64,000 nt of DNA from Antedon mediterranea (taxonomy: Eukaryota; Animalia; Echinodermata), in contig NC_092680.1 in the NCBI RefSeq assembly GCF_964355755.1, positions 2,852,001-2,916,000 of the forward strand. The letters run 5' to 3'. This document shows, piece by piece, positions 36,001 to 62,420 of the stretch; position 1 is the first letter of the stretch; the number at the start of each line of letters is the position of its first letter. The notes under the pieces are model-generated. The model was not told the DNA's origin, made no database searches, and saw only the letters and a program-made list of their open reading frames with translations. A program made the translations under genes and the position numbers.

Positions 36001-37270
36001 TAATCCTAATTATTTAGATAAAGAGATTAGTTTAGTTAATGAGGATAATATATTATTTTATGATACGTTATCTAGATTTTGACTCATAAGTCTCGAGTTA
36101 GTCTGTTTACGTTGTTGGTATTCTTGTTAAAAATGTTTTTTTTTTCCAATTTCGTGGTTCGGCTTGAGAATCTGTTTATTAGCGTCAACCTCACACAGAT
36201 GTGGGCGAGTGAGGCTAAGATATTTGCATTATAAATGGAGGCAGAAAGGATAGGATACACCGTATTGGTTACCAGAACTAATTGTATCTTCCGTACCGTA
36301 TATATTTGGGGCGATTTTTTATCACAGATTTCCTCATGTTATCATTTCAAATTAATTAATTAAATTGCATTATATCACCATGGGGCTTAGAATTTATTCT
36401 GATGTTTATATACATAATATGTAAAATAACACGATACAAGATGAACTAAGATGACTTTATATGTATTCACATACACATATACATATAAAACCCACTAAAA
36501 GTACAATAAAACATATATTTATAGACACTCATCACCACTTGTAATGAACACTTGACCCAACATTATGGTAAACTACAATCCCATCATTATAGAATATTAT
36601 TCATATCAATATTAATCAATGTAAAAAAAAATATACTTGAATTGATTTATAACTAACATGAAAGTGAAACAATATTAAGTTATCGAACTAAAGAGATACA
36701 ATATAACATATTCAAAATAGCTTAACGGAATAAGATCATTCAATACAAGATTATCCGTAGACTTGGACTACTATGTAAACGCAACAATTACATCAATGTA
36801 GAAAGGTAGAATCGTTTAAAGCATTACAATTAAACATCTACTTACAACCTTAGCAACCATGTCAATCGGAATATACTGTATACCAAAGATTTTTACACAT
36901 TCCTTTCGTGAAAATAACAATATCACACAGCAACCATTGTAAGGGGAGAGACTCATTGTATGCAAGATTGATAACATTCCAACGCACGGTCCAATCGATT
37001 TAAATATAGCGCCAAAGCTGAAAAAACTTTCGCTTCCCTACACTAACTCGAGTTACCAGCTTAAGGTATAACACGCCATATGTGTACCAATGATTTTCCT
37101 TGTAATGTGTAATAATCATTTTTTTTTAATTCTCCATGTTTCAGGTTGATCTTCTAAGAATGAAGACAGAATTTTACAACATGTATTCTAAGAAGATGCA
37201 TGACTACATCAAAGAGGAATGCAAAGATGATTATGTTGAAGTGCTTCTTGGGATTGTGAAAACCATATAG
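27027..37270 (+). CDS. Galectin-like domain-annexin fusion protein (~474 aa, 15 exons, no signal peptide)
   Basis: Exons 27027-27077, 27622-27695, 28259-28481, 30404-30538 (galectin-like: NFAIDL..PDIALRITVDFDKRKIERKARILDKWSTAVVSAPGFMFQRSLAFRIDIACGQTKYT|ITINGRDELYFNHVLQDLSQVDTISVLGEDVSI). Annexin core exons follow: 30876-30951, 31092-31186, 31451-31564, 32475-32531, 32727-32760, 33195-33274, 33748-33816, 34447-34548, 35507-35582, 35847-35959, 37145-37270. All junctions are GT-AG and phase-compatible; 1425 nt total; AATAAA near 37373. The annexin part is near-certain; the first two exons are less so. Confidence 0.85.
27719..27839. mobile_element. MITE family A copy, inverted, partial
   Basis: Reverse-complement core with one TIR. 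Confidence 0.65.
34190..34394. repeat. ~43-bp tandem repeat (CCGATTCAATCAAATACATACTGTAGGCCTTAGTACA..)
   Basis: About 4.5 copies in a galectin-annexin intron. Confidence 0.85.
34650..35410. repeat. 38-bp minisatellite (GACGTAGACGAAATTCAAGGACATAGACGCAACGCAAT), ~19 copies
   Basis: Tandem array; source of the spurious minus-strand ORFs at 34477-35419. Confidence 0.92.
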
Positions 37271-38153: not shown

Positions 38154-41100
38154 TTAATTTACAACTGCCAAAAGTACATCTTGGCATCTACCATCATACT
38201 TCACAATGATGTCATCAACAAGTTTGACGTCATATTTTGTTAAGTATTTGTCACGCACAAAGCACATATCATTCTATAATAAAAAGAAAATTACAAACAT
38301 TGTTTGAATAATAATATATACCGTTTTTAGTTGTTGAGAATAAATTTAGAAAATAAAAATATTAATATGGTTTCATACTGTGTACTATTCAAGATCAACT
38401 GTAAATACACATTCTAGAATAAACAATTACTATTGGTCTACATGTATACATCTATATTTACATTATATTGCACTGATGAAGGGCTAGTGTTGCCCGAAAG
38501 CTCTGCTAACTTTTCTGGCTGTTTTACTTCTCGTTTTGATTTTTATTTTGTATCTCCATTGAGATCCAGCCACTGATACCCACATCATTGTCATTTTTTC
38601 AGTAATTTGCCTTTGGATTTATTTACATTATTATACACAACGAAATAATAACTATCAAGCATGTCAAAGTAACAATCGAATAATGCAATAATAAATAAAT
38701 TATAATAAAACTAAATGTTTGTCTTTTTTAAAAATAAAAATACTCTTTTATACTCACTCTTGCACAATCTATGACAGTGTTTACCAACAGGTTCTCGTCA
38801 ACACTTCCAGAAGAAGGATAGAGGGCGTCATGAATGCGAACTACACAATAAAGGACCGGGTCCTCGGCGACTTGCACTAGTGATAAGAAAAAAAAATGTT
38901 TGTTACAAAAAAATCCAACTCATTTCAATAGATGGATTGCAATCATTTAATTATAGCCAACCGTAGGCCCTATATCACTAGTGAGTCCAGAGGCAAACAG
39001 TAAGACAAATATTCAGTGACACTTTTTACACACTAAAACAACAGTTATATCGTATTTCTTACCAATGTTAAGAAATCCGTGCATCACAGGGCCTTTTATA
39101 TTCCGTTGAAGATAGTATTTGAAGTTTCTTGGGTAAATCTTATAGTTTACATGAAAAACAATAAGATATGTAATATTTTACTCATTTTTAACGCATGTTT
39201 GAGATGTTCTCAAATATTGTAAAATTAGTAGAAATTTGAAAAAAAAGAAAGAAATCAAAACTTGATGATATTTACCTCCTCAAACTTTGCCAGGACATGT
39301 TGAAGATGTTCGAAATCACGTGTTGACAATACACTTTGGACCAAACGAGCGTTTCCCGCATTCTTACGAACAGACTGTAAAAAGATGTAGAGAACTTTAA
39401 TTTTTACTTGAACCGACTGTTTGTTTAAAAATTATAGTATAATTACTTAATTAATATTTCATTCAGCAAGTCTACACTCATTGGTGCTGTGAACTATCTG
39501 ATACCAGATATAATCAAAGATTAGTATTTTTTAGTAGCTTAGAGAGTCAACATTTAAATAAGAAATAGTAGAATGTCCTTACGTCTCTAAGTGTATGTAC
39601 ATCTGTATCCAACAGAGTTTCATCAAGAGAACCAGTCTCATCTCGGCCACCCTATATCAAAGATATTATATATAATTCACTTTTAATTTTTGGCATTGAT
39701 ACAAAAGATTTGTTATGGATTATCACATGCAGTTTATGTAATTACTAGCTACACAATAACAGCAAACATAACAAACAGAATGTCGTTACAGATACATTGG
39801 TTAAGCTTGGTTCCCACTAGAATGTAACGCAAAAACGTAAACGCAACGCAAGCGTTTTAACCAATGACAACCGAAGTTATAGACAGTTAGTAATCACAAG
39901 CGAATAAGCCATCGCTTGTGATTGGTCAATTCACTTGCGTTGCGTTACGTCTTTGTGTTGCGTCGCCAGTGGGAACCACGCTTTATATTTACTAATTACA
40001 GAAGCTTTAAGGTGATTACTTTACCGCCTCTGATGCACTATTGGAATGCAATTTATATAATAATCATACTCTACCTCTGCAAGTGACCGTAAAAGACGTT
40101 CATTATTTGTCTGGAAAACATCAGCTAAATCAGCATCCATTGTTCGTCCAGTCACTAGATTTGAAATTTGACAAAATATTATGAGACTATTAATTCGTAC
40201 TGATGTAAACAATGACAAAAGTACAGGAAAAAATTAGATCGTTATTTGATATTTTAACTCATGTTCATATGTCTATAGTTTATAATTTTTGCTTACAAAA
40301 ACTTAGTACTAAAACATTAAAATTAAAGATACCTTTCAACCAATTAATAGAACACGTCTATCGAAAAATCGCACATATAAAATATTTGAATATTCAATAA
40401 CTTACATTGTGTATAAGCGTCGTTGATTTTATTGACCTCCTACAAAACAATAAAATAAATTATAAATATATTTTATCAACTTTTTAAACAACAGCAACAA
40501 TTTGCAACTGTTTCATTATGTAAAAGGAAACGTCTGTCTCAATTATGTTTCAGTTTCTTATATTGTTTGATAAAAAAACGAAGAAGAACTTTACCTTATT
40601 CGTTTTCTGGATCAACACTTGGCTTATCACACGTTCATCGTGATTCTGTAATCACGAACACACATTGATTAATATTAAAAGTGTTTTCATTTTGTTTATT
40701 ACGTGTATATTTTGATTACTGTATTTTGTAATATGAATAGTTGTGTAAGGAGAGTTTAGTTTTACTTAGAACGAAGTAAGAAGTGGGCATTCTTTTTCTT
40801 TTCTACTGGTAACTTCTTAACTAGTTTTGTATTGTGATCCCATTTCAACTGAGTTCTATATTACAATACCGATAGGATTGAGGAACTAGAAGTCTCAAAT
40901 ACTATTTTTTCTATAGCAATATTTGAACGAAGAAGAATGTAAGATAAATAAGGTGAAAGAGTAAACAATAAATTAAATTTAGATTATTGTTCTCCTCTAG
41001 TTAACCGTTTTTTTCTAAAGTTGAAATAAATCTGGATTACCTGGATAGCAGGTATTAACACGTTGGCGGAAAAATATTCTGCCGATTCTAGAAGCAGAAG

Positions 41101-43160
41101 TAGGCAGTCTAGTCCAATGTAATCCGGTATTGATTCAATTAGCTCATCGACAAGTTCCTAAAATGGAAATAATTAATCACATAAATTAGATATACAGATT
41201 TAGTATTGATAATATATACAAATATGAAACCAAAAACAAAAATATCTAAAATTTAAAAAATTCTAGTTTCAAAAACAAAAGTAACCATCTAATAACACTA
41301 AATACTTTTATTTCCGCGATTATAAAACATTCAGGATAATTGAATTAATTAAAGATTTACAGCAACTAAAGTAATAGTTGTATTATACTTTGATAGGACG
41401 AACACAAAATAAACTTACACTTCCATATGCTACTTTGTAGTATGACTTAATTTCCTGGCGCTCTAGGTTTGTCGGTGGTCCAAGCTCTGATAGAATCACA
41501 GATATATCTGGATCTATAACATATATACAATATCAAGTTATATGATAATGTTTAACATTGTTTACTGATATTACATTTGTATATTTTTTCTCTTTTTTTG
41601 TTTAGGTGGAATAGTATCTCAATAAGATTACTTAAGGCACAAACTCACTTACAAATTATAATATCTTTTGAACTAAGAAATTATGGAACTCAACATTATT
41701 TCGATATTTTTCATTCATTTTTCGTGACTCGAAAACAATTAAATAAACCCAATCATTCGACATAGTTTACTTTAGTTCAAATAGTTATTATCAATAATAT
41801 AAATGCATACCATTTGACTGCAATACTTCGCTTAGAATGACTGAAGCCGTTACTTTGCTGAAAATTCGCATTTCACACTAAAACGAGTAATAGTACATTA
41901 GTAACAAAAGTGTACCTGTACATTTAGGTACCCATAAAGCTTGGTTCCCACTAGGACGCAACGTAAGGATGTAGACGTAACGCAAGCGAGTTGACCAATG
42001 ACAAGCGGCAGTTGAAATAATCCATCACTTGTGATTGGTCAAACCCCTTACGTTAAGTGTTGTGTCTCTTGTAGAACGCAACGCAAGGACGTAAGCGCAA
42101 TGCCGTTGTCATTGGTCAACTCCCTTTTGTTGCGCTTACGTTTCTTTCTCTTTATTTTTTTCCTATCAGTGCATATAAAGGCTTTAATGACTTTATTATT
42201 TATTATGAAAAAATGTGAATGAACACGTTAGATAAGCGAATACTTGATTATCCAACTCACCGGATATTCTCTGGACTCAATGCCGTCATTCACACTACAT
42301 TCGCCACCACAAACTCCGGATAAGGTTGGTCGAATTCTGTATTGGGAATCTCCTGATGGGCAAAACCCCCAGTTGCTCCAAGTTCCTGTAATACAGCCAG
42401 TACTAAGGCTATCATTGTGTCCTTCACCGTCATCACCGTCGTCACCTCCTCCATCGCCGCCGTCAACTCCTTCACCGCCGTCGTCATCGTTGTCCTCATC
42501 TTTGTCGTCATCTGTATCACCATTGTTGTTATTATTGCCTCCCGTACCTGATCCGCATGTATCAGAGCCTTTGCAGGTTTTTGTCTCCGTGTAGTCACTA
42601 CTTGTACATTCAATTCCACCACACGTTGCTTGTTCGTACAACCTGTAGCGTGTTTTAACTCCGCTTTCGCTCTGGCAATTCACGGAGCATTCTCCCCAGT
42701 CACCCCAAGTATCTAGCTGACAATTTACAGGACAACATCCCTCCGGTTGACAGGGAACACCCTCAGCTAAATTGTCACACTCATCGCACTCCGGGTACTT
42801 TGTACGCGTACGATTTTTGTACGCGTTGGCATCGCATTGTTCGGGACACGTGCTCCATTCAGACCAAGCCGTCGTAGGGCAGTTTTCATTACAGCATACT
42901 TCGCCACAATGAAACTCAACTGAAGATTGACAATTGCAACCGTCTGGTTTGGTTAGAACAGCTTGTCGACGAATACACTCCCGTCTATACTCTTGTTGGG
43001 TTGTGCTATGCTCGCAAATATGGCAAATACAAGATGTCCATGATCCCCAGTCACCATATTCACACAAATCGCTTTGGCATGTACTTTGTGCAGATACGCC
43101 ACTAAGATCATATATAAGAAAGATAAACAAAAGTAAACAATAAATGGTTTTAACGACCAT
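38154..43160 (-). CDS. Predicted secreted TSR(thrombospondin type-1)-annexin fusion, short paralog (~608 aa, 12 exons)
   Basis: Exon 1, 43160-42261 (900 nt): signal peptide MVVKTIYCLLLFIFLIYDLSGVSA, three TSR-like modules, an Asp/Gly/Asn linker and a partial TSR, ending at a GTGAGT donor. Then 41877-41811, 41513-41419, 41157-41041, 40645-40595, 40439-40406, 40154-40075, 39651-39583, 39374-39276, 39138-39063, 38876-38758, 38273-38154 encode a divergent four-repeat annexin (PTNLERQEIKSYYKVAYGS, GGRDETGSLDETLLDTDV, KYDVKLVDDII). Exon sizes and phases match the neighbouring annexins; 1827 nt open to TAA. Confidence 0.88.
38468..38508 (+). ncRNA. Minimal type-I hammerhead ribozyme motif (Penelope-like element type)
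   Basis: TTGCA-CTGATGA-A-GGGC-TAGTGTT-GCCC-GAAA-GCTC-TGCTA: conserved core CUGAUGA/GAAA, 4-bp stem II, palindromic AGCT stem III, CUC cleavage triplet and a short stem I (GCA/TGC). Confidence 0.6.
39804..39982. mobile_element. MITE family B (palindromic, Harbinger-like), full copy
   Basis: TIRs AGCTTGGTTCCCACTAG..CAGTGGGAACCACGCT; TTA TSD; internal inverted ACGCAACGCAAG and (G)ACCAATSAC/GTGATTGGTC motifs. Related copies near 33372-33481, 33837-33990, 35612-35720, 41938-42140, 59176-59310 and 61125-61284. Confidence 0.75.
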
Positions 43161-44200: not shown

Positions 44201-47200
44201 ATGTATATTGTTAGTCCTTGTATTACTACACTGTTAATGCTTATTAGTCTATCTACTTGTGTATACGGAAATTGTCTGGAAGAGGATTGTGTTTTTACAA
44301 AATGGTCTGAGTGGTCTGGATGTATATGTGCAATATGCGACGAAACGGGAGACACAAAACAAAGTTGTTTTCGAACAAGAAGTTTGTTGAATCACGCTGA
44401 TGGCTGCCAGAATGAATGCGGTGAAACATTTGAGTCTGGTTGTATTGGCCAGTGCTGCAATACGTTTTGCGCTGTGACTGAATGGAACCAATGGTCTGAC
44501 TGTCGCTGTTTTGACGATGAGTTGATTGGCAGACGATCTCGGAACCGCACTGGTATAGATGGACAATGTTCAGTGCCATGTGATATAATATACGAAGAAA
44601 GCACATGCGATGACTTCTGTTGTCCAATTGACTGTCATCTTGGACAATGGAATGATTGGTCAGCGTGCTCAGTGGAATGTAACACAGAGGTAGGATATAC
44701 GACCAGAGTTAGAGAAATGGTACAGGGAACTTGTGGTGGAAACGTGTGTTCATTATTTGATTCCACTGAAGTTAAACAATGTAATGGAGTATGTGAATTA
44801 TCCGAATGGTCCTCTTGGAATTGCACTTGTGATCAGTGTATGATCAACTCGACAAATATTTTTGATCACTGTGTCCGAACCAGAATGAACTGTAGCGATC
44901 GTTGTGGTGATTTACTTGAAGAGAAATGCACTGAAGGTAACTGCTGCGATTCTACTTGTGAGCTGAACATTTGGAGTGAATGGACGGAATGTTCTGCACC
45001 ATGTGATTCTGCAGAGATCGGAACACAAATCAGGAGTCGATCAGTCGCAAGTCAATGCGCTGGACACCCATGTCAAAGTCTGGAAGATTCGCGTTTATGT
45101 AATGCTTCGTGTTGTCCACACCACTGCACTGTTAGTGATTGGGGTCAATGGACTTTATGTACCGCTAACTGTGAATCAGATAACGGAACACAAGTTCGTA
45201 CACGTAATTTGAATCAAGGAGCATGCGGAGGGTTAATGTGCAGTGACGAAGATTGGCGTGATATAAGAACATGTCAGGGAGCATGTCGTTTGGATTCATG
45301 GTCAGATTGGGTATGTCTTTGTTCGTCATGCAATAAAAACGACCCTGATAATCCTTACAGAGAATGTTCAAGACGGAGAGACGAGATCAATCCAGACATC
45401 TGTCGTGGTAACTGTGGAAGTCTTTTGGAGTATAAATGTGAGGGTGACTGTTGCGATGAGCTCTGCACGGTTGGAGAATGGGGCGATTGGACAACGTGTG
45501 ATGCTGCATGTGGGTTTAGCAGTATGGGAAATATGACTAGAACACGCCAACCATCTGAATCTTGCTCTGGCGATCCTTGTAGCAGTATTGTGGAGATTAA
45601 GGAATGTTTTTCACCCCACTGTTGTCCAGAAGATTGTGTAATTCATCCATGGGAGTCTTGGTTACCATGTAGTAATGAATGTTCAGTTGAAGAAGGAACA
45701 CGGGTAAGATATCGTTCTTTTACTCAAGGATCATGTAATGGCATGCTCTGCTCGGAAGGAGATCGTTTTGAAATTGAAAGCTGTCAAGGAAACTGCAATG
45801 TTAGTACATGGTCAGAGTGGTCATGTGATTGCCAAACTTGTTCAGTTATAAATAACACGGTGTTATATAATTATTGTACGAGAAATAGGACAGTATCCAT
45901 GTCAAGCGAATGCAGCACATGTGAAGAAAATGAAAGCATGTGCAGAAACTTTGAAGAAGAATGTTGTGATGAAACTTGTCTTGCCGATGAATGGTCTACG
46001 TGGTCATTATGTACTGTTGGATGCGAAACATATTCTAACGGCACACAGGAACGAACACGTCAACTAATTGAATTATGCACTGGTCGTCCATGTTTTGATG
46101 TTTATGATCAACGTGAATGTGGGTCTCACTGTTGCCCTGAAAACTGTACTTTTGGACCATGGGAGGAATGGGCAGAATGTAGTAGCAAATGCAGTACAAT
46201 AATTGGTTCGCAAGTACGATTTAGAGATATCAACCAAGGATCATGTGGTGGAAACATGTGCAATGAGACAGATGCAATAGATATTCGTACCTGTTATGGT
46301 TATTGTGAAGTTTCATCGTGGTCTGAGTGGAGCTGTGTTTGTAGTGATTGCTCAAATAGTAACTCAACCCTCTTTAATGATTGTCGACGAACACGTAGTG
46401 AGACAAATGATTGTGAAGGGTTAAATTCATGCGGAAGTTTATTTGAGAGCACCTGTTCTGCTGAGTGTTGTAATGAGATGTGTAGCCTGTCACAATGGAC
46501 AGAATGGACGTCTTGTTCAGCGGAATGCATGACAGATGGGACTGGATCTCAATATCGAGTTCGTAGCATCGATGATTTTTGTATGACAGACCCTTGTGAA
46601 GTATTATTTGAAAACAGAACATGTAATGCTATGAATTGTTGTCCTGTTAGCTGTACATTGGACGAATGGCAAAACTGGTCAACGTGCACAAGTGTTTGCA
46701 GTGACCAAGAAGGTTATCGAGCAAGGTATAGAGATTACAATCAAGGGTCCTGTGGAGGAGTAATATGCACAGACGACCATTATTATGAGGTTGAGGCTTG
46801 TATGGGCAATTGTACACTTACCACCTGGAGTGAATGGGATTGCATGTGTGAATTATGTAGTGACGAAGACACCAAGTTACGTAACTCATGTATAAGAGAA
46901 AGATCACAGGTGGTACCTGGTAGCTGTATAAGTGAGGATGTATGTGGATCGCTTGTAGAACGGGGTTGTTTTGAGGTCTGCTGTGACAAATCATGTGCCG
47001 TTACCGAATGGGGAGAGTGGAATACATGCAGCGCTCCATGTGATACAGACGAATTTGGAGAGCAGATGAGACACCGTAGTCCAATCGGTATTTGTCAAAG
47101 TGACCCATGTCATAATTTGACAGAGATTAGATCATGTTTAGCTGGATGCTGTCCAATTGACTGTTTTATGGGTGAGTGGACTGAATGGTTTACATGTTCG

Positions 47201-50200
47201 TCATTTTGTCAACATACAACAGGAGTACAAGCGCGGGCGAGAAATATGGAACAAGCATACTGCGGAGGATTAAATTGCACAGTCGACGACAACTACGAAA
47301 TACGGCCATGTCAAGGTGAATGTTTACTTTCAGAATGGTCATCATGGAATTGTTCATGTACTATTTGTAATCCGAACGAAATAAATTTTCACGAAGAATG
47401 CGTCAGAGAGCGTTATGAGATTCGCCCCGAAGAATGTGATGGTAGATGTGGATCATTGCTGGAGACTACATGTTCTGAGGAAGACTGCTGTGACGAGTTC
47501 TGTAGTTTAAGTCAGTGGTCTGAGTGGTCGGATTGCAATGCTGCTTGTGGAGTGAATGATACAGGCATAGCTTCCAGAACAAGGCAACCGGTAGCAGCGT
47601 GTTTTTCAGATCCTTGTGTCGATGTTTATGAGTCGAAACAATGTATGGGTCCAGAATGCTGTCCTGTGGATTGTAACATGGGAGAATGGACTCAATGGTC
47701 ACTATGCTCATCGATATGTTCCAGTGACAGTGGGTTAATGCACCGTAATCGAGAGATAATTCAGGGTGTCTGTGGTGGTGAGCTTTGTTTTGATAATGCT
47801 GGATATGAAATCGCTTCCTGTTATGGAAATTGCACACTAAGCGAGTGGACAGATTGGACATGTAAATGTGACTTTTGTGATCAGGATGCGATTCTTAAAA
47901 ATGACTGTATTCGCCAGAGGTCCGAAGTTTCTCCTGAATTTTGTATCGATGACTTATGTGGTACACTGATTGAACGGGTATGCTCTAGAGAGTGCTGTGA
48001 TGAATTTTGTATATTGAGTGAATGGTCTGTCTGGTCAACTTGTTTAGCATCTTGTAACACAAGTGTCATTGCTACAAAAGAGCGTAGCAGGGAGCCTATA
48101 GTTTGGTGTCTCGCTCCTCCTTGCAATTCTACCGAAGAAGTATCAATTTGCGATGACAGTTGTTGCCCTATAGACTGTACACTTGAAGAATGGAATGCGT
48201 GGCTGCCATGTTCATCCGCATGCTCGGACATAATAGGAACACAAATACGAGAAAGAGGAATGCATCAGGGATCTTGTGGTGGAGTGATTTGCTCAGAAGA
48301 TGCGGCATATGAGACACGCGTCTGCTATGGTACATGCCATGTTAATGATTGGACTGATTGGACTTGTAACTGTACAGCTTGTGCCATGGAATCTAATAAT
48401 CAGTATCAAAACTGTTCTCGAAAGCGAACATCAATATTAGACGGCTATTGCTCCGACCATTGTAGTGCCACAGAGCTGAAATGTGATGACTTGTGTTGTG
48501 ACGATTCTTGTACTGTAAACCAGTGGTCTGAGTGGACAGACTGTACAGCTCAGTGCGAATTAAATAGTACAGCATTGCAAGAGCGTTTTAGGAATTCATC
48601 ATCAACATGCGTTGGCGTACCGTGTGCTGAATTGTATGAAGCACGTACCTGTTACAGCCCAGAGTGCTGCTCTGTAAATTGTACAGTCGGTGTATGGTCC
48701 GAATGGACCATATGTTCATCTCGGTGTTCTGGTGAAATAGGCGTGAAACATCGTGTACGTGACGTACAGAATGGGTCATGTGGTGGAACATTATGTAATG
48801 TAACCGATGATCGAATTGACAGCGAATCATGTGTGGGAGAATGTCAGGTTTCAGAGTGGACGGAATGGATCTGTGACTGTAGTTTCTGTAGCAATTCAAA
48901 TTATTCGAGGCAAAATTGTACGAGACATCGAAATATTATTGATCCGGAAACGTGCTTATTGTCAGAATGTGATCTTCAAGAAACCAAATGTGGTGAAGAG
49001 TGTTGTGATGAAGATTGTGAATTGAGTGAATGGAGTGTCTGGTCAAATTGTTCTAAGTCATGCGATGAGACAGGTTCTGGAATAATGTATAGAGAACGTT
49101 CCATCATAAACCAATGTAATGCCGATCCGTGTGAACCTATCTTTGAAGAAAACGAATGCTTCCCGTCTTGTTGTCCCAAAGACTGTAAAATCGGCGTCTG
49201 GACTTTATGGTCACAGTGTACTGTACTTTGTTATTTTGATGTTGGAATTCAATCTAGATCAAGAGATATATGGCCAGAGGTATGTGGTGGGCGCTCGTGT
49301 AACAATTCGGATGTATATCAAGTGAAGCAGTGTTCAGGCCCATGTGAACTTTCAGAGTGGAGTGAGTGGGCATGTGAATGCTCACTTTGTAATGTTACGA
49401 CTGACCTACTCTACAATAATTGTTCAAGATCAAGAACTGAATCTGATTATATATGCAATGGGAACTGTGGTAACATAATAGAGCATCAGTGTGTGCAACT
49501 ATGTTGTGATCCTCAATGCAACGTGACTAACTGGAGTTTATGGAGTTCGTGTAGCCTAGATTGCGGTGTAGAAGGACACGGAGAGCAAACTCGAATAAGG
49601 TCTGTCAATGGTCCCTGTCGCGCCGACCCCTGTGATGCATTATTTGAGATTAAAAACTGCTCATCTGAATGCTGTCCTAGAGATTGTTTAATAGGATCTT
49701 GGACAGATTGGAGTAATTGTTCTGCTAGTTGTTCCTTTGCTGTAGGAACCAAACGTAGGTCTAGAACATTCTTTCAAGCTGAATGTGGTGGAATTGAATG
49801 CTTAGATATGGACAACAAAGAGGAGATAGAGTGCAATGGTGCATGTGAAATTTCAGATTGGAATCAATGGTCATGTGTTTGTCATTTCTGCGTTCCAGGT
49901 GACCAGTACCTTCATAACCAGTGTACACGGACTAGGAGTCAATCTCCCGAATGTACTGGTCTTGAAGAATCATGTGGACAACTTGAAGAAGAAATATGTG
50001 GTGATGAATGTTGTGATGATTTTTGTTTTGTCAGTGATTGGAGTGAATGGGGTGAATGCTCAGCTAATTGTGCAAATGAAACGAATGGAATACAAGAGAG
50101 ATCAAGGACGCAGATATCTCAGTTCTGTTTGGGTCCGCCATGCGAAGCATTGGTTATAAATAGAACCTGCAGCTCTACCTGTTGTCCACGTGACTGTAAC

Positions 50201-53200
50201 GTTCTGGAATGGAGTGAATGGTCAGCATGTTCTGCTAGTTGTTCTTTTGAAGTAGGAAATAAACGAAGATCTAGAACAATAGTCCAGGCCGAATGTGGTG
50301 GAATTGAATGTTTAGATATGGACAACGAAGAAGAGGTTGAGTGCAATGGTGCATGTGAACTTTCAGATTGGAGTCAATGGTCTTGTACCTGTCATTTCTG
50401 TGCTCCTGGTGACCAACATCTTCATAACCTGTGTACACGGACTAGGAATGTATCTCCCCAATGTACTGGTCTTGAAGAATCATGTGGACAACTTGAAGAG
50501 GAAATATGTGGTGATGAATGTTGTGATGACTTTTGTTTTGTCAGTGATTGGAGTGAATGGGGTGAATGCTCAGCTAATTGCGCAAATGAAATTAATGGAA
50601 CACAAGAGAGATCAAGGACGCAGATATCTCAGTTCTGTTTGGGTCCGCCATGCGAAGCATTGGTTATAAATAGAACCTGCAGCTCTACCCGTTGTCCACG
50701 TGACTGTACCGTTCTTGAATGGAGTGAATGGTCAGCATGTTCTGCTGATTGTTCTGCAATAGATGGGACACGAAATAGAACACGTGGTTTTATTCAGGGA
50801 GCGTGTGGAGGTGCTACGTGCGATACGGACATTTATGAGATGGAGACGTGTACAAGTTTATGTTCTCTTGGTGAATGGAACAATTGGAGTTGCTCGTGTG
50901 CATTTTGTAATCCCGAATCAACATCATCATTATATAACCTTTGTGAAAGAACTAGAGAAGAACATGGTATTTGTGACGGTCGATGTGGAGAATTAACTGA
51001 AGAAAAATGTACTGAATCATGTTGCGACGATTTCTGTGCCACTGACGAGTGGAGTCCTTGGAGCGATTGCAGTGATGGTATATCAGTGCGGAATAGAAAT
51101 GTGGTTTCAGTATTCTGCTTTGGAGATCCATGTGGAGGAATTCAGGAAGAAAACGTTTGCCAAGAAAACTGTTGTGTGTACTCGGAATGGACGACATGGT
51201 CTAACTGTTCAACTAACTGTGCTGAAACTACTGGATATCAGTCAAGAAGCAGAACATTAGAAAGCGAGTGTCTGCAAAATGCGTGCACTGACAGTGATGA
51301 AATCCAATCTTGTGTTGGAACATGCCACCCATCTGATTGGTCTGCTTGGGAATGCACATGTACGTTTTGTAAGCCAGAATCACAGATATTATTCAACAAT
51401 TGTCAACGTTCCAGACATGACGATAGTTCAGCATTTTGTTTTGAAGCGTGCGAACCAGTTGAGGAAACAGAATGCACAGTCGAATGCTGTGATGAGTTTT
51501 GTTTCTGGACCGAGTGGACATCTTGGACGGAATGCCAACTAAATGAAAGGTCAAGAAGTCGAAGCCAGTCATCAACCTTTTGTATTGGTTCACCGTGTGG
51601 ATCATCAATTCAGGTTGAAGAATGCCTTTCATCGCTGACTACCGTTTCAGCTGCAATCGATAAGGCTATAACTGTATTCATCACTGACGAACTTAAAATC
51701 TGTAGTTCTACAACCTGGACGACTTGGAGTGATTGCTTCTCAAAATGTTATGAAAATGTAAGTCAACTAAATACAAAATAATTATCTCATATCATTAAAT
51801 ATTATATCAATTCATTGCATATCGCCCATTAATAAAAGTCTATTTCTTTCATCTCGTACGTATATTATAAGTGGGTCAAATCTATTTTTATTTATCATAA
51901 AGTTAAGTAATAATGCATTGATCTTTATTTATTTAAGATACATCATATTCAGCGAAAGACCTCATTATTATTACCTCAAACTCAATATCATAATTAAGCC
52001 TATTACTAATTGTATATACATAATATAAAAATAACGCTTAAAAAAGAACAACGTTTCGACTCATTACGATAAACGTACCCTCATTACTAATTGTATGTTA
52101 TTTTATCAATATAACTAAAATTGATAATATAAATATTTTAATTTTGGTATTTAATAAACAGAATCCACTACAATATCGTAATCGACAGCTTGTGCCTATG
52201 ATGTGTAATAGTACCCAGTGTATTGAAACAGAGGAAGAAACACGAGCATGCCAGGTATTGTTCAATATTAATAGTCAACTGGCTCTATTATTCCGATTAA
52301 TAATTGAACATTACGTTTTATATTACTATGACTATTTTCAGGGTACCTACTACAAATTAACAAATCATTCGGAGTTCGATGTTCACGAGGAGTTGGTAAA
52401 TCTACACAATATATCAGGTAGCTACCTGTTTATTATTGATATATTGAGACTGTTCATATACTAGATTTAATGAGCATAAATGATATACTAAAACAGTTAA
52501 GAAATATTTTCTTTATTGAAGCATTCTTTCTTTAATTTTTTTCAAATAAATGTAATGCTTTTCGTTCATTTCAACACTATCCAGCCTACCCTTGCGTACT
52601 TAAACCTTTGACTCCATAGTTGCCACGACAGATTACCATTGCCGTCATGTATAGCGGCTTAATTCACTGAATACATACTACACTATACTAAATACTGTTA
52701 CTAACGTTTATATTATTACAGCAAATCAGGATGAGGCAATAAGCATATTCTTCAGTTCAAAAAGTATGAGAGAAAGGCTGCTAATACGTGATAAACATTT
52801 AGCTGCATTTGGATACGTGAGTTTTTATAAAATCAAATGTTACTTTATTAGAGTAGTCACAAAATGATAAAACAAACTCCGAAATATTGAATTATATATT
52901 GTGTGCGTATTTTTCAGCATCGACAACCATTAGACAATGTATACCACGATCGGAAAACACCCCTATTTGTGGAAAGTCGTTGAACCTAATCTTTTTTAAT
53001 CGTCAATAACTAATTATCTAACTCAATTTAATTAATAAACAGGGTAACATCAGGTGGTTAAAATCATGACCGAAAAATTAACGCGCGATTTACCGAATTT
53101 TGCCCTTACGTAAATTTATATATAGATGAGTTGCATTACTTGTTTGTTTTCAAACTTACTAGTGGACCCCCTCTGGTTTTTAGTCACAAAAGTTAATAAC

Positions 53201-56197
53201 ATACCTTTAGTTGATTCTAGCCTCCATGATTCTAGGCAGGTTCAATTCACAACGTTCTGCAGAATTACAGTAGGCACACACGCGGGGGCCTCGTTTGTAA
53301 ATACCGAGGTATGGTGTGCACTTGCTGCCTGATTCTTATAACCCTGGCCCACATGAGTTGAATACTCGAGATACTAATAACAAATGGACATTGTAATGGT
53401 ATTTCGATGTTATCACACGATTGACAGTATTGTTATGTGCATTCTCTTTTAAGCTTAATCTTTCGAGCTATCTTATTTGTAGCTTTGGCTGAAAAAATAA
53501 TAAAAACTAGAAATTTACAAATTAATAGATCTCTTATTTTTTTGTCAATACAGACACTTTCTGAATTTCTAATAAACGTTACGTCACATGACACCCATGC
53601 ATGTATCAATGTTTTGCTAGAGAGTACCACTCAATCGACGACACGTCTTTTGAACGATCTCAGTTCAGGAACATTTGACGTGGAATCAATTCTGGAGGTA
53701 ATAATACCTCTTTCTAACCAGGTAAGTCATCATGACAGTGCCGTATATTGATACATTTAATGCAAATTATTATTTAAAAAGAAAGAATTGAAAACTACCA
53801 ATTACTATAAATTCAGAGCTAATTTCTAAGTACTTACTATTATACTATTTTTTTTATTTTGTTGTTTTTTGGTGTTGTTTTTAAATTCTTCAGACCCAGT
53901 TAAAGTCTGTTGAAGACTTTTTGTAGCTTCTATTATTTAAAAAAAATCAAAATGGCTTCCTTAACTTTTTCCAATAATTATGAGGAAATCTTATAATGTT
54001 TCCTATTATTACTGTATAGGAAATGTTAACAGTTCAAGATTCATACATGGAAGGTAATAATGATATATTTTATTTTGTAAATAGACAAAATAGCATAAAA
54101 GTGAAGCACTCGATTCTCGGTACTGTATCTAGATGTCTACAGCATCATAGGAATATTCAGTAATACAGCATCACATATGTTTTCCATGTATCGACTAGTT
54201 CATAACCTAACCCTGAACAACAAAATTGACAGGCACCACATGTGATACAAATTAGATGCTTTATTCCAATGATACTCGACAACCGATGTTGGTATACAGC
54301 ATTGAATATCGGATAAACACAAGTGAAACCTCTCCAGACAAAGTAGTAACTATTAGTTTAAAAGTCTAATATTATATTATTATTAAAAATATTTCCGATT
54401 TTTATATAGAATACAATAGAAGTCTTGAAACAGTTGTTTTAAACAGTGAAATGGACACAGCGGTAAAGAGGTTATTAGGTTCACTGCTCTTGGTAAGATT
54501 TTTATATTTTAATAATAGGGCCTATGGTGTAAGTTTGTTTTCAACATATTTAAACATGATTGCATTGATTAAGCCAGTAATGAACTATTATTTTATTTCT
54601 AGGGCATGCGTGCTGAATCCAAAGTTGTAAGCATCTCTCAGATAAACAAAGACGTTAACAGAATTTTAGAAGTAAGACGACCATTATTACTATTTTCAAC
54701 TTTTTGGCTTACTATGACCACTTGTTTCTTCCTAAACACCACATTTTGTCTCCTTTATGTACAGAAACTTCCACCTAAAATACTCACGTTTCAAGTATAG
54801 TGTATCAATAGAGAGAGATAGTAAGAAAATTCAGTCGCAATAACACTAATATTTTAGAATAAAATGCTGTGTACTGTTTTGCCATAATTTAAATAATACA
54901 ACATATTTTCTAGGGTGATGATATAGATGTTCAAAGTGTTTTAGCCATACGAAGTTTGGAAGACATCAACACAATTTATGAAGAATTTACATTGGTAAGT
55001 AACATTTAATTTATAATGCACAGTGGTATACAATTAACATTAAACAATAACTAATTCCTATTGATAAAAAAAAAATTAATCTATTAATCATATAATATAC
55101 GATAACAATACTCAGTTAAGTTACTGACAGAGGTAATAGTGTTCATAAATTAGACTAATGACTTATACATTTCTGTTTAATCTAACTAGTCCAATAGTGA
55201 CCTAACAGAATTTTTATTCGACCAATCAGAGGATATTTACATCATGGGATATGTTAAAATCGGTACGTAATAAACCATTTTATCATTTGTGTTTGGATGA
55301 GAGGCAATGATTTTGAATTTTTAAAATTGAAAAGTCTTTTCAATACCTTTTAGAAACTTTTAAGTGTTATATCTTATTTATATAAACTTTCCAATGGAGA
55401 CCTATGTAAAACAGATTAGATGTAAACATCTCCAATATTACAAATCGACAATTTGGCGTTAAGATTTTGGAGCTAAACTGTAAAAGTTAGCCATAATAAT
55501 CTACGTATATCTACCAATTTCGGTGAGTGGCCAGATAAAAATCGTCATAAATGTGTGTGTTGAGTAGAACACATTCACAGCTCAATTTGGATATATGTAT
55601 GTGATCAAACGGACCGAATCCGGGTTCAATGTGAACGTAGCTTATGTCTGATATTTAAACATTTCTTGTAGTTTCTTATGGACGAAGTACTACTGATTAC
55701 TGGGCTGCCGTTTTCAACCGTTTGATACACGTTACACCGTCTTCAAGCAATCATTTTACACGAATATTGGTACAGAGAGCAGAGGTAACGTAATGTATTT
55801 ACTACTGTATTCTTGATAAGAGAATTTGAAAATAAATATGGTGTCTTATTTGGGTGACCTTTACAGAATGAATGTCTATGCATTGGATATGTTGTTTTAA
55901 AACGAAAGAAACGTATATTATGGTTTAAAGACAGATACAGTATAAATAATTGCATTTTTCTTTTGTTTTTAAATTGCATTCGATCATTGCCAAGGTACAT
56001 ATACTATTTAACATTTAAAAAGGTTTTGACAAAGACTATATTATTTAACATCTTTACAGATCGACTTAAATGGAATTACACAACGTTATCAAGAACTGTA
56101 TGGCCGAAGCTTAGAAGATGACGTCATTAATAACTACAGTGGTCCTTGCAAGGAGCAAGCAATTACTACTATTAATCATCAATTTATACATGCCTAA
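44201..56197 (+). CDS. Giant predicted secreted TSR-repeat-annexin fusion protein (~2859 aa, 12 exons)
   Basis: Exon 1, 44201-51757 (7557 nt): signal peptide MYIVSPCITTLLMLISLSTCVYG and about 44 WxxWxxC...R.R TSR modules, ending at a GTAAGT donor. Exon 52162-52254 completes the last TSR. Annexin exons: 52342-52417, 52722-52816, 53554-53721, 54020-54053, 54410-54492, 54603-54671, 54914-54994, 55190-55262, 55672-55784, 56060-56197 (e.g. RILVQRAE|IDLNGITQRYQELYGRSLEDDV). 8580 nt in frame to TAA. Confidence 0.88.
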
Positions 56198-56589: not shown

Positions 56590-59500
56590 TCATGATTTCT
56601 GCTCGTTAATCAATGCAAGTAACGCGTTTTCAAAATCTCCTCGCGTTTCACCCTTAATTGTGTCACGAAGACTCTTCCCATGCTTAGCTGCATACACTGC
56701 CTTAATTGTTCCAAGATCAACCTGAAATGTCATCCGCTTATTATTAATGATTTGAAGGTATGTAATTACGTTTTGCAGGACAAATTATCAACCACCCACC
56801 ACCACCAAAAAAAAAATGCACTGATTTTACTAACCTCACTACGCGAAACCAAACAGCGCATCAATTTCTCTTCATTTGTGCCTATCCCTTTCATCGAACT
56901 TGCAAGCATGTCTGCGTAATATTCACTTGGGTTACGCACACATTTTACTAGAGAAGAAAAACACGATTATATAATTAAAATCTTAAAGAAATTGTATATT
57001 TTGTGAGTTAGGTAGAAGTGATATTTCAGAAAATGCGATGATCGCATACGTATTCATATTATATTATAAATTATAGCACTGTTTAAAGGTTAAAAGATAA
57101 AATAAAGTGTATACAAAAGTTATTTTTTGATTATTTGTATTCTTGTGGGAATAAAATAAATTAATTGTAGGCATAAAAATAATGTTTTATAGGCTTTACA
57201 TTGTTATACGTTATTACAATTCAAATAAAAAATAATAATAAATATGATATAACCGATGGTAAGGTAACTTTATTCTTGTGGGAATAAAATAAATTAATTG
57301 TAGGCATAAAAATAATGTTTTATAGGCTTTACATTGTTATACGTTATTACAATTCAAATAAAAAATAATAATAAATATGATCAAACCAATGGTAAGGTAG
57401 CTATACTGTAGGTCACCGGACATTTCACTTTTTATTGCTTCTTCAATAGACTTCTTAGAAATCTAAAAAATCAAATAGCAAAAATAGATAATCATCTCAA
57501 AATAAATAACATAGTATAATGACATTAATTTTGATTTTGTTTATATATATATTTAGGCAAATTCCCAAGGATAACAATGAGCGAATTCATTCACTATCCT
57601 TAAAGGTGACAATCCAGTTCACAAGAAAAACATACATAAGATGGTCTACATAAACAAAATCTTATTACAAGTCTTTAGGAGTAGAGTTATAATTTGTCAT
57701 TAGATCAAATCCTGACATGATAGAACTTGAACCCAGGACCCTTGGATTGGTAGGCCACCGACCATATCTCCATTACTAAATCTCAGACGCACTGTAAAAC
57801 AAGTGAAACATTTATGTTTGAAACAGGAGGAAGAATCTTACGTTTCCATAAGCATCAAACACCGCCCTCACGTGTGCATAACTTCTTCCCAGTAATACTC
57901 GCTGAAATTCAGACTCATCTGTTCCAAATTTACCTTCACCAGCCTGTAATGAAAACAAAATAATATTATAATATCAATATATTATTACGTCAATCGTCAA
58001 TGTTCATTGCTCTATTTGTAGTAAATTTATATACAGCACCATAATAATTAGTAAATATACAAACATCCTCTAAATACCTCATAAAGGGCTTTTGCATCCG
58101 AATCTATCTTTTCTTGGTCAACTTCATCCGAGTCATCCCTTCCGGCCTAAACAAATATAAAAATATAGTAAGCGCCCAAAAACTAAGTAAAATATTATAG
58201 CAAAATACAAAGAGCGACGACAGAGGGCGTGATATTTAATATTTCGGCCTATATTGAAGATACTGTTAACTCGAGTTTTTAAAACTTTGTTCCCAGGCAC
58301 CGCTCTTTTTATAATTGTTTAGAATTGTATTTACTCCTAAATTGATTATGAAATTTAAAATGGATTTCTAGTTCGAACTTACTGCAGAAAGCCCAACCAG
58401 TAGACGCTCGAAATCACCCTTTGTTTCACTTTTTAAGTCTTCCTCAAGATTGCGACCAAAACCTAAGGAAATAACATTCGATATTCAAACTGATTGCAAA
58501 GGAAAGATGAGTATATTAAATGTTTCAAGATACACATAAAATACTTTGTAACGTTTAACTAGTAAACGTTTCGTAGGCCTACTCAGAAAGCGTTGCACGA
58601 TGAGGCCCGACGGTGCATGCTGTCTTAAAACTCGACTCGACGAGTCTTCTTCCTCTTGAGATAGCGTCAGGGGCGTATTTTTTATTTTTCTCCAGACGCG
58701 ACGAGACGACTCGTCGTACGATGCTGTCTGAGTTAGCCTTTACGGAATGTAACATTGTATATTTTTATCTTTAAAAAACAAGTCTTACCTTCCTTATACG
58801 CTACTTTTATTGCTTTTATTTGCTGAAAAACAAACACTTAAAACTTAAAATAAAGTATGTTTATTATCTAAACTGTTTTAGGCCTAGGAAAAGACTGCTG
58901 CGTGTACTTCTCTACTTTCTTTTATCATATTCTTTTACAATTGATGAAATAATTAGGACCATTGTAGGCCTACAGTATGTTTAAATGAAAAATAAGCTGA
59001 TAATTACCGCACTGGTTCGAGTACACAGGATTTCAATCAAAAGATTTTCATTAGTTCCTGCACCCTAAACGTGCATTAAATACATAAAAAAAATCATCAT
59101 TTAGTTTATAAACATTTAGTATTAAATGCGTTGTATGCAAATGTTTTCAATTTATTCTACTAAAACACTTGGTTAAGCTTGGTTTCCAATTGGAAGTAAG
59201 GAAAGATCGTAAGTGCGCCGCAATTAATTTGACCAATCACGACGCATGAATCGTAAGCTAATAGCTAATATATGCTAATAATGATTGGTCGACTCATCTA
59301 AACCAAGCTTTATAGAGTTGTTCATACGTACTTTCATTGCCGCTCCAAGACATTTGGCATCAAACAACGGCGGAAGATCCAATAAAGCTAACAGCACCTT
59401 TTCAAAATTGCCACTGCATTCGCTCTTAATGTCGTCAACAAGATCCTGAAATGAATTGTTGAGTATGTTAAACATAACTTAGTTTACACACAATCGAGTG

Positions 59501-62420
59501 AGGTATACGTTTGTGGAAATAGAAAGTCACCAAAGGTCACATTTAGAGAGGGTCATTTTGGTGTACATACTCAACTCATGCAGCATTAACTTGACCCGAC
59601 TTACAATACCTGCCACCAGCAACCACACTGACGTGATCCTTTCTTAAACGCCGAAACAGGAATGTATATATTAATGTATGTATGTATGTTGATTGATTGA
59701 ACCTACCCTGCCATAACACGTTTTATAATGCAGCTTTAGTTCCTGCCGTTGAGGATTGTTGCGGTATGCAATGATATCAACTAGTGCCTTCTCATCGGTT
59801 CCTGAAAAAAAGAGTAAACGTAATTCATTAATCTATATTCATTACGTTACGTTGTAGAAACATAACATACCGTAAACATATATTTCAAGTTTAGAAGTAG
59901 ATAACACTGTCTTGTTGGATCAGTTTACACTTATATAAAATAAGGGATAGGGAAACTTCCAGTACGACAGGCCGTAGGCCTACATTATATTAATTAATAA
60001 TATTAACTTTTACTTATAACATTACAGCATTTTCATACTATATGAAACCAGAATATATGGTACATAGAACGGAAACAAAATATGAATTAAAAAAGGAGAT
60101 GAAAAGTCTATCAATATTTGATAACGATTTCTTTAAATCGTTTAGTCTACTGTTTATTCAGTTCTCAACAAAAGATTAGTGAAAAACTGAAATTTCCGCC
60201 ATTTGTACGATTACATAACACGCAATGCTATACCCTCGGTGGTCGAGGATATAATTATATAACTTGAAACGTTGATATGAAAATGAGGTGAATTATTTAA
60301 CTGAACTTACTTAAATGATAATCATCTAATACTTACCCATTCCTTTCATGGCCTTCCGTAAGATTTGAACATCTTTATCTTTGTCAAAGTTTGCGTATGC
60401 ACGGATTGTTGGCTTGTAACGGAACAAAATAAAAATGTATTTTAGTTTATTTAACTAAAACAATACAACATCTATCAGTATAAAGCTAATTCATTTTAAT
60501 TTGATTTATCTTACAACGGAACCGAAACATATACCTTAAACTATTTGTACTTCAACATAAACAAGATGCTTGTTCCCTTTGCAAAATTGAAAACTTTTTG
60601 CAACACGATCACGTAGCCACAGGTTCATTATGGTGGAATGAAGGATCGAATTATGACATTACTTTAATCGGATCTTCAAACGTATTATTAATTAAAAAAT
60701 ATTATAAATTATAACTGCTGTAAAGCCAGCATATCTTGTACATGGTTTGTTTTTTATGGCTTAACTAATGGTAAATTGGCAACGTAGTAGTTTGAGGCAT
60801 TTCTGCTGCGTATGGCGCCCCATATTTCAGGTATAGTAATTAAATAAAGTATATGGTTATCTACATATCAGTAGGCCTATAGCGCCACAAAATATGTATA
60901 CAATAATCAAACACGAATAAACCGTTTCTACACATACTTGGTGTTAAAATTTAACACAAAATAACTTATATAGAAATTTATTCAATTGTATAAATATTTA
61001 ACGTAGGTAAATAACATGTGAATGAGGTGCTCGTGACTTACCAAGATAAAGTGAGTTGACCGAAAGAACGATTAGAGTTCACAAAGTAGGCTATCGGTTT
61101 CGTAATTCAGCGCTTGTGTGTAACGCTTAGTTCCCACTAGGATGTAACGCAACGACGTAAGCACGACGTAAGCAATCTAAACAATTACAAGCGATGGATT
61201 ATCCGAACTTTCACGCGTGATTGGTCAACTCGCTTGCGTTGCGCTTACTACGTCCTTGCGTTGTGTCCTAGTGTGAACCAAGCTTAAAAGCGAGCGCACG
61301 CATTGTGATAGTTCGCACGTCAAGCACGCACATTAAATAGTCAATCCTTCTCAACAGGTACACATATCCCCAAAATCATTACCATCATTCCCCATTAGTG
61401 AGGATGGACATCATGTATGGAATGGATTGAATAAAGCATAATTCCCACTGAATGTTTTCATACGATGATATGCATGTGAAATGTTGATGAACAGGCGTAT
61501 GAGATGCGTGAGCGTGAGTTTCATGTCATAGTGTAGACTGCCTGTTATGCTGGGATATGGAGGGAGTTACCCTCATCATTCATCCTGGGTTCTCTATAGC
61601 TCAACCCTGAGGGCCCAGTCAGTTTCAGTTGGTCATCTGATAGCCGACCTCGTCCCACCCACAAATCTTACCGTAAGGAGAGTAGGCCTACCCTTAACGC
61701 ATAAAAAGACCGATATAACCTGACTAAATTAATACTGTCAACAATTATAGGCTACATTAACATAATACGGTATCTCCGATGTTACTTAACGCAATGTGAA
61801 TTTGTATCACTATTATTACGTCTAATGTATTTTTAGCACATTTTACATATGTTTTTTTTTCCATTTTTTTGGGAGAGATTTGACACTTATTAGTGGTTTA
61901 ATCATAAATCTTAAAAGCTTCGACAATTTAAAGATTTTCTCTCATCGTTTGACATTTAAAAAAATAAATGTATTGTCGTAATTAACATACCGGAAATATA
62001 AATATTATTGCTTGTTTCTTGTTGAGTGGGTACTAAAATAAAATTGTATAGTCTTTGAACGTTTTCTCACATGCTGTAACACAAAATGTAAATAATTTTT
62101 GCCGTGAGCACTTTCTTATTGTTACGACTCTATCAAGCTTAAAATCATGTAGGTATCAGTATACAAATGCCCCATATTTAACAATGGCAAAGTCTATATC
62201 ACGTCAAAGCTGGTCAAAATAGCATAGAGCGTTGCACAGATTCGCGACAAAACGCATACCGTATATAACCATTGATTTTGATGACCATTTTCACCATCAT
62301 ATTCACGTACAGTATTACAATAATTATACACAAAATACATACACTGTATAATATCTAATATTATTTAAAATACTATAATTAACGTTAAAATTAGCAGTAT
62401 ATACTTACAACTGCAGCCAT
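56590..62420 (-). CDS. Canonical annexin (~319 aa, 12 coding exons) with four intact type-II Ca2+ sites
   Basis: Exons 62420-62409 (MAAV), 60412-60337, 59801-59707, 59445-59332, 59064-59008, 58822-58789, 58462-58383, 58146-58078, 57943-57842, 57462-57387, 56947-56835, 56721-56590. Endonexin loops MKGMGTDE, MKGAGTNE, GEGKFGTDE and MKGIGTNE each have an acidic cap (KSEC, KSET, KSEM, KGET). The 12-nt first exon is the least certain part. Confidence 0.93.
57138..57399. repeat. 133-bp tandem duplication covering an annexin exon end and splice donor
   Basis: TATTCTTGTGGGAATAAAAT...GGTAAGGTA occurs starting at 57138 and again at 57271. Confidence 0.85.

Follow-up and report, generated by a model that had tools for sequence, protein, structure and literature searches.

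A giant gene and a short neighbour in the crinoid Antedon mediterranea predict fusions of thrombospondin type 1 repeats to an annexin core

The window analysed here is a 64,000-nucleotide stretch of the crinoid Antedon mediterranea (NC_092680.1, positions 2,852,001 to 2,916,000). Its central feature is a giant gene whose predicted product runs from a signal peptide through a long rod of thrombospondin type 1 repeats (TSRs) to a complete annexin core (Table 1). The original prediction, made from the letters of the DNA alone, held that a 2526-aa open reading frame (ORF) is merely the first exon of this gene. The ORF lies at 44201-51781 and is exon 1 of a longer spliced gene, and the GTAAGT donor claimed at 51758 is present. 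Splicing from that donor into 11 further exons, as had been proposed, gives 2859 aa without an internal stop and uses only GT..AG introns (11/11); the three junctions singled out at the time (51757/52162, 52254/52342 and 52816/53554) are correct in the sequence-based exon model. From residue 2591, a Met, onward the model is identical to the RefSeq protein XP_071965551.1 (P0128), with 0 differences, so that exons 4-12 are independently reproduced. Five sequencing runs were compared, of which X1 is guessed to be RNA, while X2-X5 cover introns evenly and look DNA-like. X1 contains single contigs spliced exactly across introns 6 and 7 (exons 6-7 and 7-8, with 28 letters on the short side), and X5 holds neither. 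Among the X1 contigs listed, exons 2-5 are uncovered and the join 51757/52162 is unseen, which is uninformative either way. A pseudogene reading was rejected: among the variants of other runs, 19 that fall in exons were checked and none introduces a stop, and a second crinoid, Anneissia, conserves the frame.

Table 1. Positions of the fusion genes, their parts and the two neighbouring annexins, counted from the first letter of the window.
Feature	Position	Strand	Description
Giant gene, 12 exons	44201-56197	+	open frame of 2859 aa, GT-AG introns
Giant exons 1-4	44201-51757, 52162-52254, 52342-52417, 52722-52816	+	
Giant exons 5-8	53554-53721, 54020-54053, 54410-54492, 54603-54671	+	
Giant exons 9-12	54914-54994, 55190-55262, 55672-55784, 56060-56197	+	
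Predicted signal peptide of giant	44201..44269	+	aa 1-23, from hydropathy
Giant exon 1	44201..51757	+	7557 nt: 44 TSR units, Ser/Thr linker, first half of TSR 45
Giant exon 2	52162..52254	+	second half of TSR 45; three Cys completing the three of exon 1
Giant exons 3-12	52342..56197	+	complete divergent four-repeat annexin core, aa 2551-2859
Cys2624	53602..53604	+	repeat I helix E, first half of predicted disulfide
Cys2844	56147..56149	+	repeat IV helix E, second half of predicted disulfide
Short TSR-annexin fusion, 12 exons	38154..43160	-	608 aa, open frame, 11/11 introns GT..AG
Annexin B, core exons	56590..60412	-	canonical; open 11-exon core, 5' exon unmapped; tail-to-tail with giant
Annexin A, core exons	30876..37270	+	open 11-exon core, 5' exon unmapped; tail-to-tail with short fusion

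The join between the TSR rod and the annexin falls inside a domain. Intron 1 halves the last repeat, TSR 45, and leaves three Cys on each side (2501, 2512 and 2516 in exon 1; 2534, 2539 and 2549 in exon 2). On a profile made from 70 further TSR units, the spliced TSR 45 scores 43.2 bits, the same as its counterpart in Anneissia, against 16.4 bits for the end of the read-through ORF. The top database match of the giant is Antedon mediterranea XP_071965550.1 (99%, 2428 aa, 'SCO-spondin-like'), followed by Anneissia japonica XP_033118665.1 (62%, 2842 aa, 'THSD7A-like'), and the latter model runs uninterrupted from TSRs into the annexin. Antedon and Anneissia agree at 23/31, 13/24, 22/32 and 32/56 positions in exons 2-5, and at 32-74% across exons 2-11. 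The split terminal TSR, the Anneissia ortholog model, a second fusion paralog in both species and the fold of the C-terminus all support the single ~2859-aa TSR-plus-annexin protein that had been put forward, and we consider one fused protein very probable.

The exon structure of the giant head follows that of its neighbour. Its annexin exons measure 76/95/168/34/83/69/81/73/113/138 nt, against 76/95/114/57/34/80/69/102/76/113/132 nt for the core exons of annexin B, and the five sizes reported earlier as identical (76, 95, 34, 69 and 113 nt) are indeed so. All intron phases match between the two, and the intron separating the 114- and 57-nt exons has been lost to leave a single 168-nt exon. 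Counted over the conserved annexin intron positions, 9 of 10 core introns are kept in phase in the giant and 10 of 10 in the short fusion gene next to it.

The annexin fold assigned to the C-terminus is borne out. A model of the giant head from aa 2591 reaches a predicted local distance difference test (pLDDT) score of 93.6, with a template-modelling score (TM) of 0.88 and a root-mean-square deviation (rmsd) of 2.4 to annexin A13; the head of the Anneissia ortholog of the short paralog gives Z 34.2 and an rmsd of 2.3 over 301 residues against annexins, whereas the TSRs of P0114 were modelled with a pLDDT below 50. The input alignments of these models were mostly ordinary annexins and bias them toward the annexin fold. 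The sequence matches are independent of the models: the best match of the giant head to a solved annexin has an E value of 3e-14, and Pfam Annexin scores 61.7 bits in P0128 and 68.3 bits in P0114 (cut-off 25). The full-length sequence P0002 scores just 15.3 bits, which is why databases miss the annexin. The core consists of four ~70-aa helical repeats, the all-helical arrangement seen in annexins (PF00191) such as A13, A6, A1, A2 and Hydra annexin XII. The crinoid heads differ from these at ~20-25% identity: none of their GxGT calcium loops is intact, a Cys pair and sequons are new, and a predicted signal peptide and TSRs stand in place of the annexin N-terminal tail.

The type II calcium motif is given in passages of PMC5412444 as GxGT-(38-40)-D/E. 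It is found in 0 of 4 repeats in both Antedon heads and in the Anneissia short head; the Anneissia giant head has one loose GT match, which lies in a collapsed repeat III loop, and at least one type II site is kept in 32 of 33 other annexins. Each of the four repeats has its GxGT loop deleted or rewritten in the fusion heads, which, going by the type II site, would not count as canonical calcium- and phospholipid-binding annexins. All four fusion proteins also begin, by hydropathy, with a hydrophobic leader followed by Cys-rich TSRs, and would depart from the canonical annexins in this respect as well, the latter being cytosolic proteins with no signal peptide. In the giant the leader is the top 19-residue hydropathy window (1.99, at aa 3) and the next elsewhere reaches 1.36; therefore the giant has no transmembrane helix. 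The residues directly preceding its first TSR are kept in Anneissia.

Two further changes set the heads apart. Cys is present at the column of residue 2624 in 4/4 fusion heads and 1/38 other annexins, and at that of residue 2844 in 3/3 fusion heads reaching it and 1/38 others; both occur together in the three complete fusion heads and in 0/38 others, in place of an aliphatic/aromatic pair. Annexin repeats I and IV pack through helices IE and IVE, and the new pair likely staples these two repeats as a disulfide. The giant heads also carry 5 and 6 sequons where 1.4 and 1.2 are expected (Poisson P 0.014 and 0.002), three of them at shared positions, and 8 of the 11 lie in the convex AB/DE loops, compared with 14 of 47 in other annexins. 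Annexin calcium sites normally sit in convex loops (as stated in parts of PMC10559496), and glycans likely cover the former membrane-binding face of the giant head. This argument is limited to the giant, because the short heads carry 0 and 1 sequons.

The rod of the giant shows the WxxW strand, Arg strand and paired Cys that define the TSR superfamily. WxxW-anchored units number 45 in Antedon and 45 in Anneissia, mostly arranged as three-unit repeats (triplets) of ~170 aa, of which the Antedon giant has 13 regular ones. Pfam finds TSP1_spondin (PF19028) in 26 stretches (E 6e-88) and TSP_1 (PF00090) in 23 stretches (E 6e-9), and beyond these two TSP1 families nothing matched the 2526-aa ORF at E up to 1. 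Between Antedon and Anneissia, orthologous triplets share 56-70% identity, except triplet 13 (45%), and most paralogous pairs are at ~30-48%. Antedon triplets 12 and 13, two adjoining 510-bp units at 49836-50855, share 82% of their DNA and 78% of their protein sequence, a likeness that reflects recent duplication, conversion or homogenisation inside exon 1; the unit count still equals that of Anneissia. The mature giant would be ~318 kDa with an isoelectric point (pI) of 4.3, 56 sequons, no RGD and no transmembrane segment, and its rod is 14% Cys and acidic (D+E 413 vs K+R 168). A TSR measures ~5 nm, and the rod would extend over roughly 200-250 nm.

Tandem WxxW TSRs are common to this rod and to SCO-spondin, THSD7A, hemicentin and properdin, but unlike such TSR-array proteins the rod has no vWD, LDLRa, Ig or transmembrane parts. 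SCO-spondin combines vWD, LDLRa and other non-TSR domains, and that identity was rejected, since only the two TSP1 families match the ORF. THSD7A/B end in a C-terminal transmembrane helix and a cytoplasmic tail, and were likewise rejected, as no window outside the leader exceeds 1.36. The RefSeq labels SCO-spondin-like and THSD7A-like reflect TSR content only. The Anneissia protein XP_033106389.1 (P0004, 1752 aa) has the same three-unit repeat with a different, non-annexin tail; the TSR rod looks like a mobile crinoid module because this protein pairs the triplet with another tail, and the protein is a relative of the rod donor.

The giant has a smaller partner. Scanning the surrounding sequence showed a 310-aa ORF at 42228-43160 to be the first exon of a short fusion gene absent from the original prediction, which had treated the fusion as a single gene: the fusion is real, but it forms a two-gene family within a cluster of four annexins. 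The short product comprises a predicted signal peptide, one TSR triplet, an Asp/Gly linker, a terminal TSR and a complete annexin. Its Anneissia ortholog is XP_033118711.1 (582 aa, Pfam TSP1_spondin and Annexin), and the records of both Anneissia fusion proteins state an equal-sized contig (960448). In Antedon the two fusions lie head-to-head with start codons 1040 bp apart, and the locus reads annexin A (+), short fusion (-), giant fusion (+), annexin B (-). Repeat IV of the short head contains three additional Cys, each kept in Anneissia, and with an odd number of Cys an inter-chain disulfide could form.

Annexin B keeps intact type II calcium motifs in 4/4 repeats. Annexin A has canonical exon sizes, is 41% identical to B and shows 0/4 GxGT motifs; a leader or an extra domain is conceivable upstream of its mapped core. 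One annexin A intron holds a short imperfect tandem-repeat array (34650-35400), and related short elements occur in nearby introns (~39900, 42000, 59240 and 61200), with very high depth in the runs; the element is likely a dispersed repeat. Adjoining the cluster, a multi-exon gene on the minus strand (~1-20350) encodes C2-domain-like peptides and presumably resembles ferlin. Ferlins and annexins are both linked to membrane repair.

The mirror layout of the locus suggests an inverted duplication. A TSR exon would have come to splice into the first core exon of an annexin at its phase-0 acceptor, displacing the cytosolic N-terminal tail, and a later inverted duplication would have produced the long and short genes in their head-to-head arrangement, with an ordinary annexin on either side. 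Orthologous heads of Antedon and Anneissia are 54% (giant) and 79% (short) identical, and the giant and short kinds 19-22%. Their common triplet type and Cys pair favour one origin of both fusions. Two separate origins are possible because the junction details differ: the giant has an extra intron in its last TSR, and the first annexin exon is 67 nt in the short gene vs 76 nt. Trees drew on 36, 25 and 20 of the 58 non-crinoid matches described below, with seven long-branch rows dropped after the first tree. An LG+G4 tree joined the giant and short heads with a support of 90, flagged as long branches meeting, and it counts against a common origin that unconstrained mixture-model trees did not unite them. 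The heads as a single clade were not rejected (constrained log likelihood 3.75 higher, approximately unbiased test p-AU 0.74), nor was descent from the neighbouring annexins (p-AU 0.49), so the trees have neither shown nor rejected either proposition. The head stems are long (1.5-4.3 changes per site, model-dependent) and lead to short terminal branches, a pattern that suggests a change of function followed by constraint.

HMMER gave 59 matches to the head, of which only P0128 is close (56%); the other 58 are at 19-28% identity with at most one WxxW. No TSP family was present in the 28 non-crinoid matches scanned, and no TSR-plus-annexin proteins besides the crinoid ones were found among 113 and 14 TSR matches, within the length and word limits of those searches. 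Shorter relatives of the Anneissia head were sought with a word-index search, which returned none from 3021 candidates and is insensitive here, since P0128 exists; metagenome scans found no relative. In an atlas search the head falls with annexin clusters and P0114 gave no usable match. Within the limits of these searches, the predicted TSR-annexin fusion is found only in two crinoids, Antedon and Anneissia. Annexins are joined elsewhere to an Fn3-associated domain (P0130, P0131 and P0179, from a priapulid and land snails), to CFAP97 (P0129, P0165 and P0175, from Nematostella, Lingula and Plakobranchus) and to C1 domains (P0180).

The architecture had been called unrecognised, and we found no description of a TSR-annexin fusion in a literature consulted mostly as titles and abstract openings; in the main text of a 2023 echinoderm matrix review that uses the Anneissia genome (PMC10381214), 'annexin' has 0 occurrences. 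Passages of PMC5412444 and PMC10559496 state that annexins lack signal sequences and exit cells only by leaderless routes. The earlier statement that animal annexins have no signal peptide has exceptions among predicted insect proteins from a mayfly (Cloeon CAB3380255.1, P0168) and a click-beetle (Ignelater KAF2897859.1, P0169). These two and P0178, from a JGI/Logan cluster, have signal-like hydrophobic leaders. Like the crinoid fusions, they combine a leader with an annexin core that has lost some calcium sites; unlike them, they have neither TSRs nor the Cys pair. In the sole tree holding all three they were not grouped with the crinoid heads (weak support), and they are likely independent of the crinoid fusions. 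Unconventionally secreted annexins such as Echinococcus EgANXB18/B20, in the parts of PMC10559496 that describe them, place the annexin fold outside cells, as is predicted here, but without a signal peptide or extra domains, whereas the crinoid fusions have a predicted leader for the endoplasmic reticulum (ER) and a disulfide-rich rod. The TSR fusion, not secretion alone, is what is new.

As to function, the account we prefer, with moderate confidence, is that of a secreted disulfide-rich glycoprotein serving as a long extracellular-matrix tether, with the calcium-motif-less annexin as its docking head. The product would enter the ER and secretory route and gain disulfides and glycans; the acidic rod would span or cross-link matrix, and the head would dock onto a partner, either protein or glycan, with no need of a calcium/phospholipid switch. 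Ordinary annexin membrane binding, and with it wound sealing, would be less likely than a matrix role because the head lost the canonical calcium sites. Several observations weigh against this account: the acidic rod is poorly compatible with ordinary heparin-binding TSRs, the short heads are almost free of sequons, and annexin A also has 0/4 calcium motifs with no fusion known.

The same secreted fusion could instead be a damage sensor or clotting factor, which we think unlikely though worth keeping in view. Its head would bind anionic lipid of injured or dying cells at seawater calcium through low-affinity sites, and its rod would cross-link coelomocytes or matrix in autotomy and wound sealing. 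The entire annexin fold is retained, which fits such a role, and the convex loops of the short protein are conserved about like the rest (54/71 vs 189/237 identical). Properdin is an immune protein made of TSRs only. Annexins function in membrane repair, according to parts of PMC5412444. The deletion or rewriting of the GxGT loops in all four repeats speaks against lipid binding, and the convex loops of the giant are less conserved than the rest (26/55 vs 121/207) and bear most of its sequons. Slightly less likely again is a skeletal or cement matrix protein, whose rod would act as template or reinforcement for calcite, or as glue for larval attachment, with the head as assembly domain. The pI of 4.3 and 56 sequons of the mature giant, the 14% Cys of its rod and the Asp/Gly linker of the short paralog suit this idea, as does an ordinary annexin that co-purifies with sponge aggregation factor (reported in part of PMC11670116), but such acidity is common among extracellular Cys-rich proteins.

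The last alternative, and the main rival to the join itself, would dissolve the giant fusion into two genes, as in RefSeq. One would encode a secreted protein of TSRs only and the other, downstream and with its own promoter, a divergent cytosolic annexin; the join would then be due to read-through or to faulty prediction. Against the fused gene stand the RefSeq split of the Antedon locus into XP_071965550.1 ('SCO-spondin-like', 2428 aa) and XP_071965551.1 ('annexin A13-like', 269 aa), and an X1 contig at 51666-51827 (depth 2.7) that reads across donor and stop without splicing and finishes shortly before an AATAAA at 51831; further, the Anneissia giant model is without the last exon, and both Anneissia fusion proteins are predictions. 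The AATAAA lies 50 nt past the 51781 stop, in-frame Met codons at 2532, 2533 and 2591 could serve a separate annexin, and the exon-1 donor ranks 13th from the bottom in strength among 42 local donors. But AATAAA is present in 6/11 giant introns, and other introns are likewise retained in X1. The RefSeq TSR model itself requires a 55-nt frameshifting intron, whose weak donor (4.6 bits) outscores just one of 41 local donors. In Anneissia nothing matches the tail that this model predicts (E 7.7), while the sequence read in frame is 67% identical there (E 6e-28). Helix IA, the product of exon 3 (13/24 identical in Anneissia), is missing from the 269-aa RefSeq annexin, exon 2 alone is half a TSR, and an equivalent TSR-annexin join is present in the short paralog in two species. 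On this evidence two separate genes are very improbable, although a minor TSR-only isoform is possible. The 55-nt GT..AG stretch that RefSeq takes for an intron, at 51360-51414 within exon 1, is likely an annotation artefact and possibly a minor exitron.

The fused architecture is real, conserved and apparently undescribed. A further proposal can be made tentatively: a crinoid annexin turned classically secreted, disulfide-stapled and calcium-independent, its long and short forms expressed as a co-regulated pair from one bidirectional promoter, with the heads joining the rods into a matrix polymer peculiar to crinoids, be it ligament, cement or clot. If true, this would be the first annexin fold serving as a structural module of the extracellular matrix. 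The one locus displays the steps from a cytosolic to an extracellular protein, namely gain of a leader, loss of calcium sites, a new Cys pair and new sequons, in a fold that exon capture has turned into a multidomain protein with predicted secretion through the ER, with two paralogs, constrained in two crinoid genera. The database names SCO-spondin-like, THSD7A-like and annexin A7/A13-like obscure this family, whose members are candidate lineage-specific components of crinoid connective tissue, attachment or wound closure.

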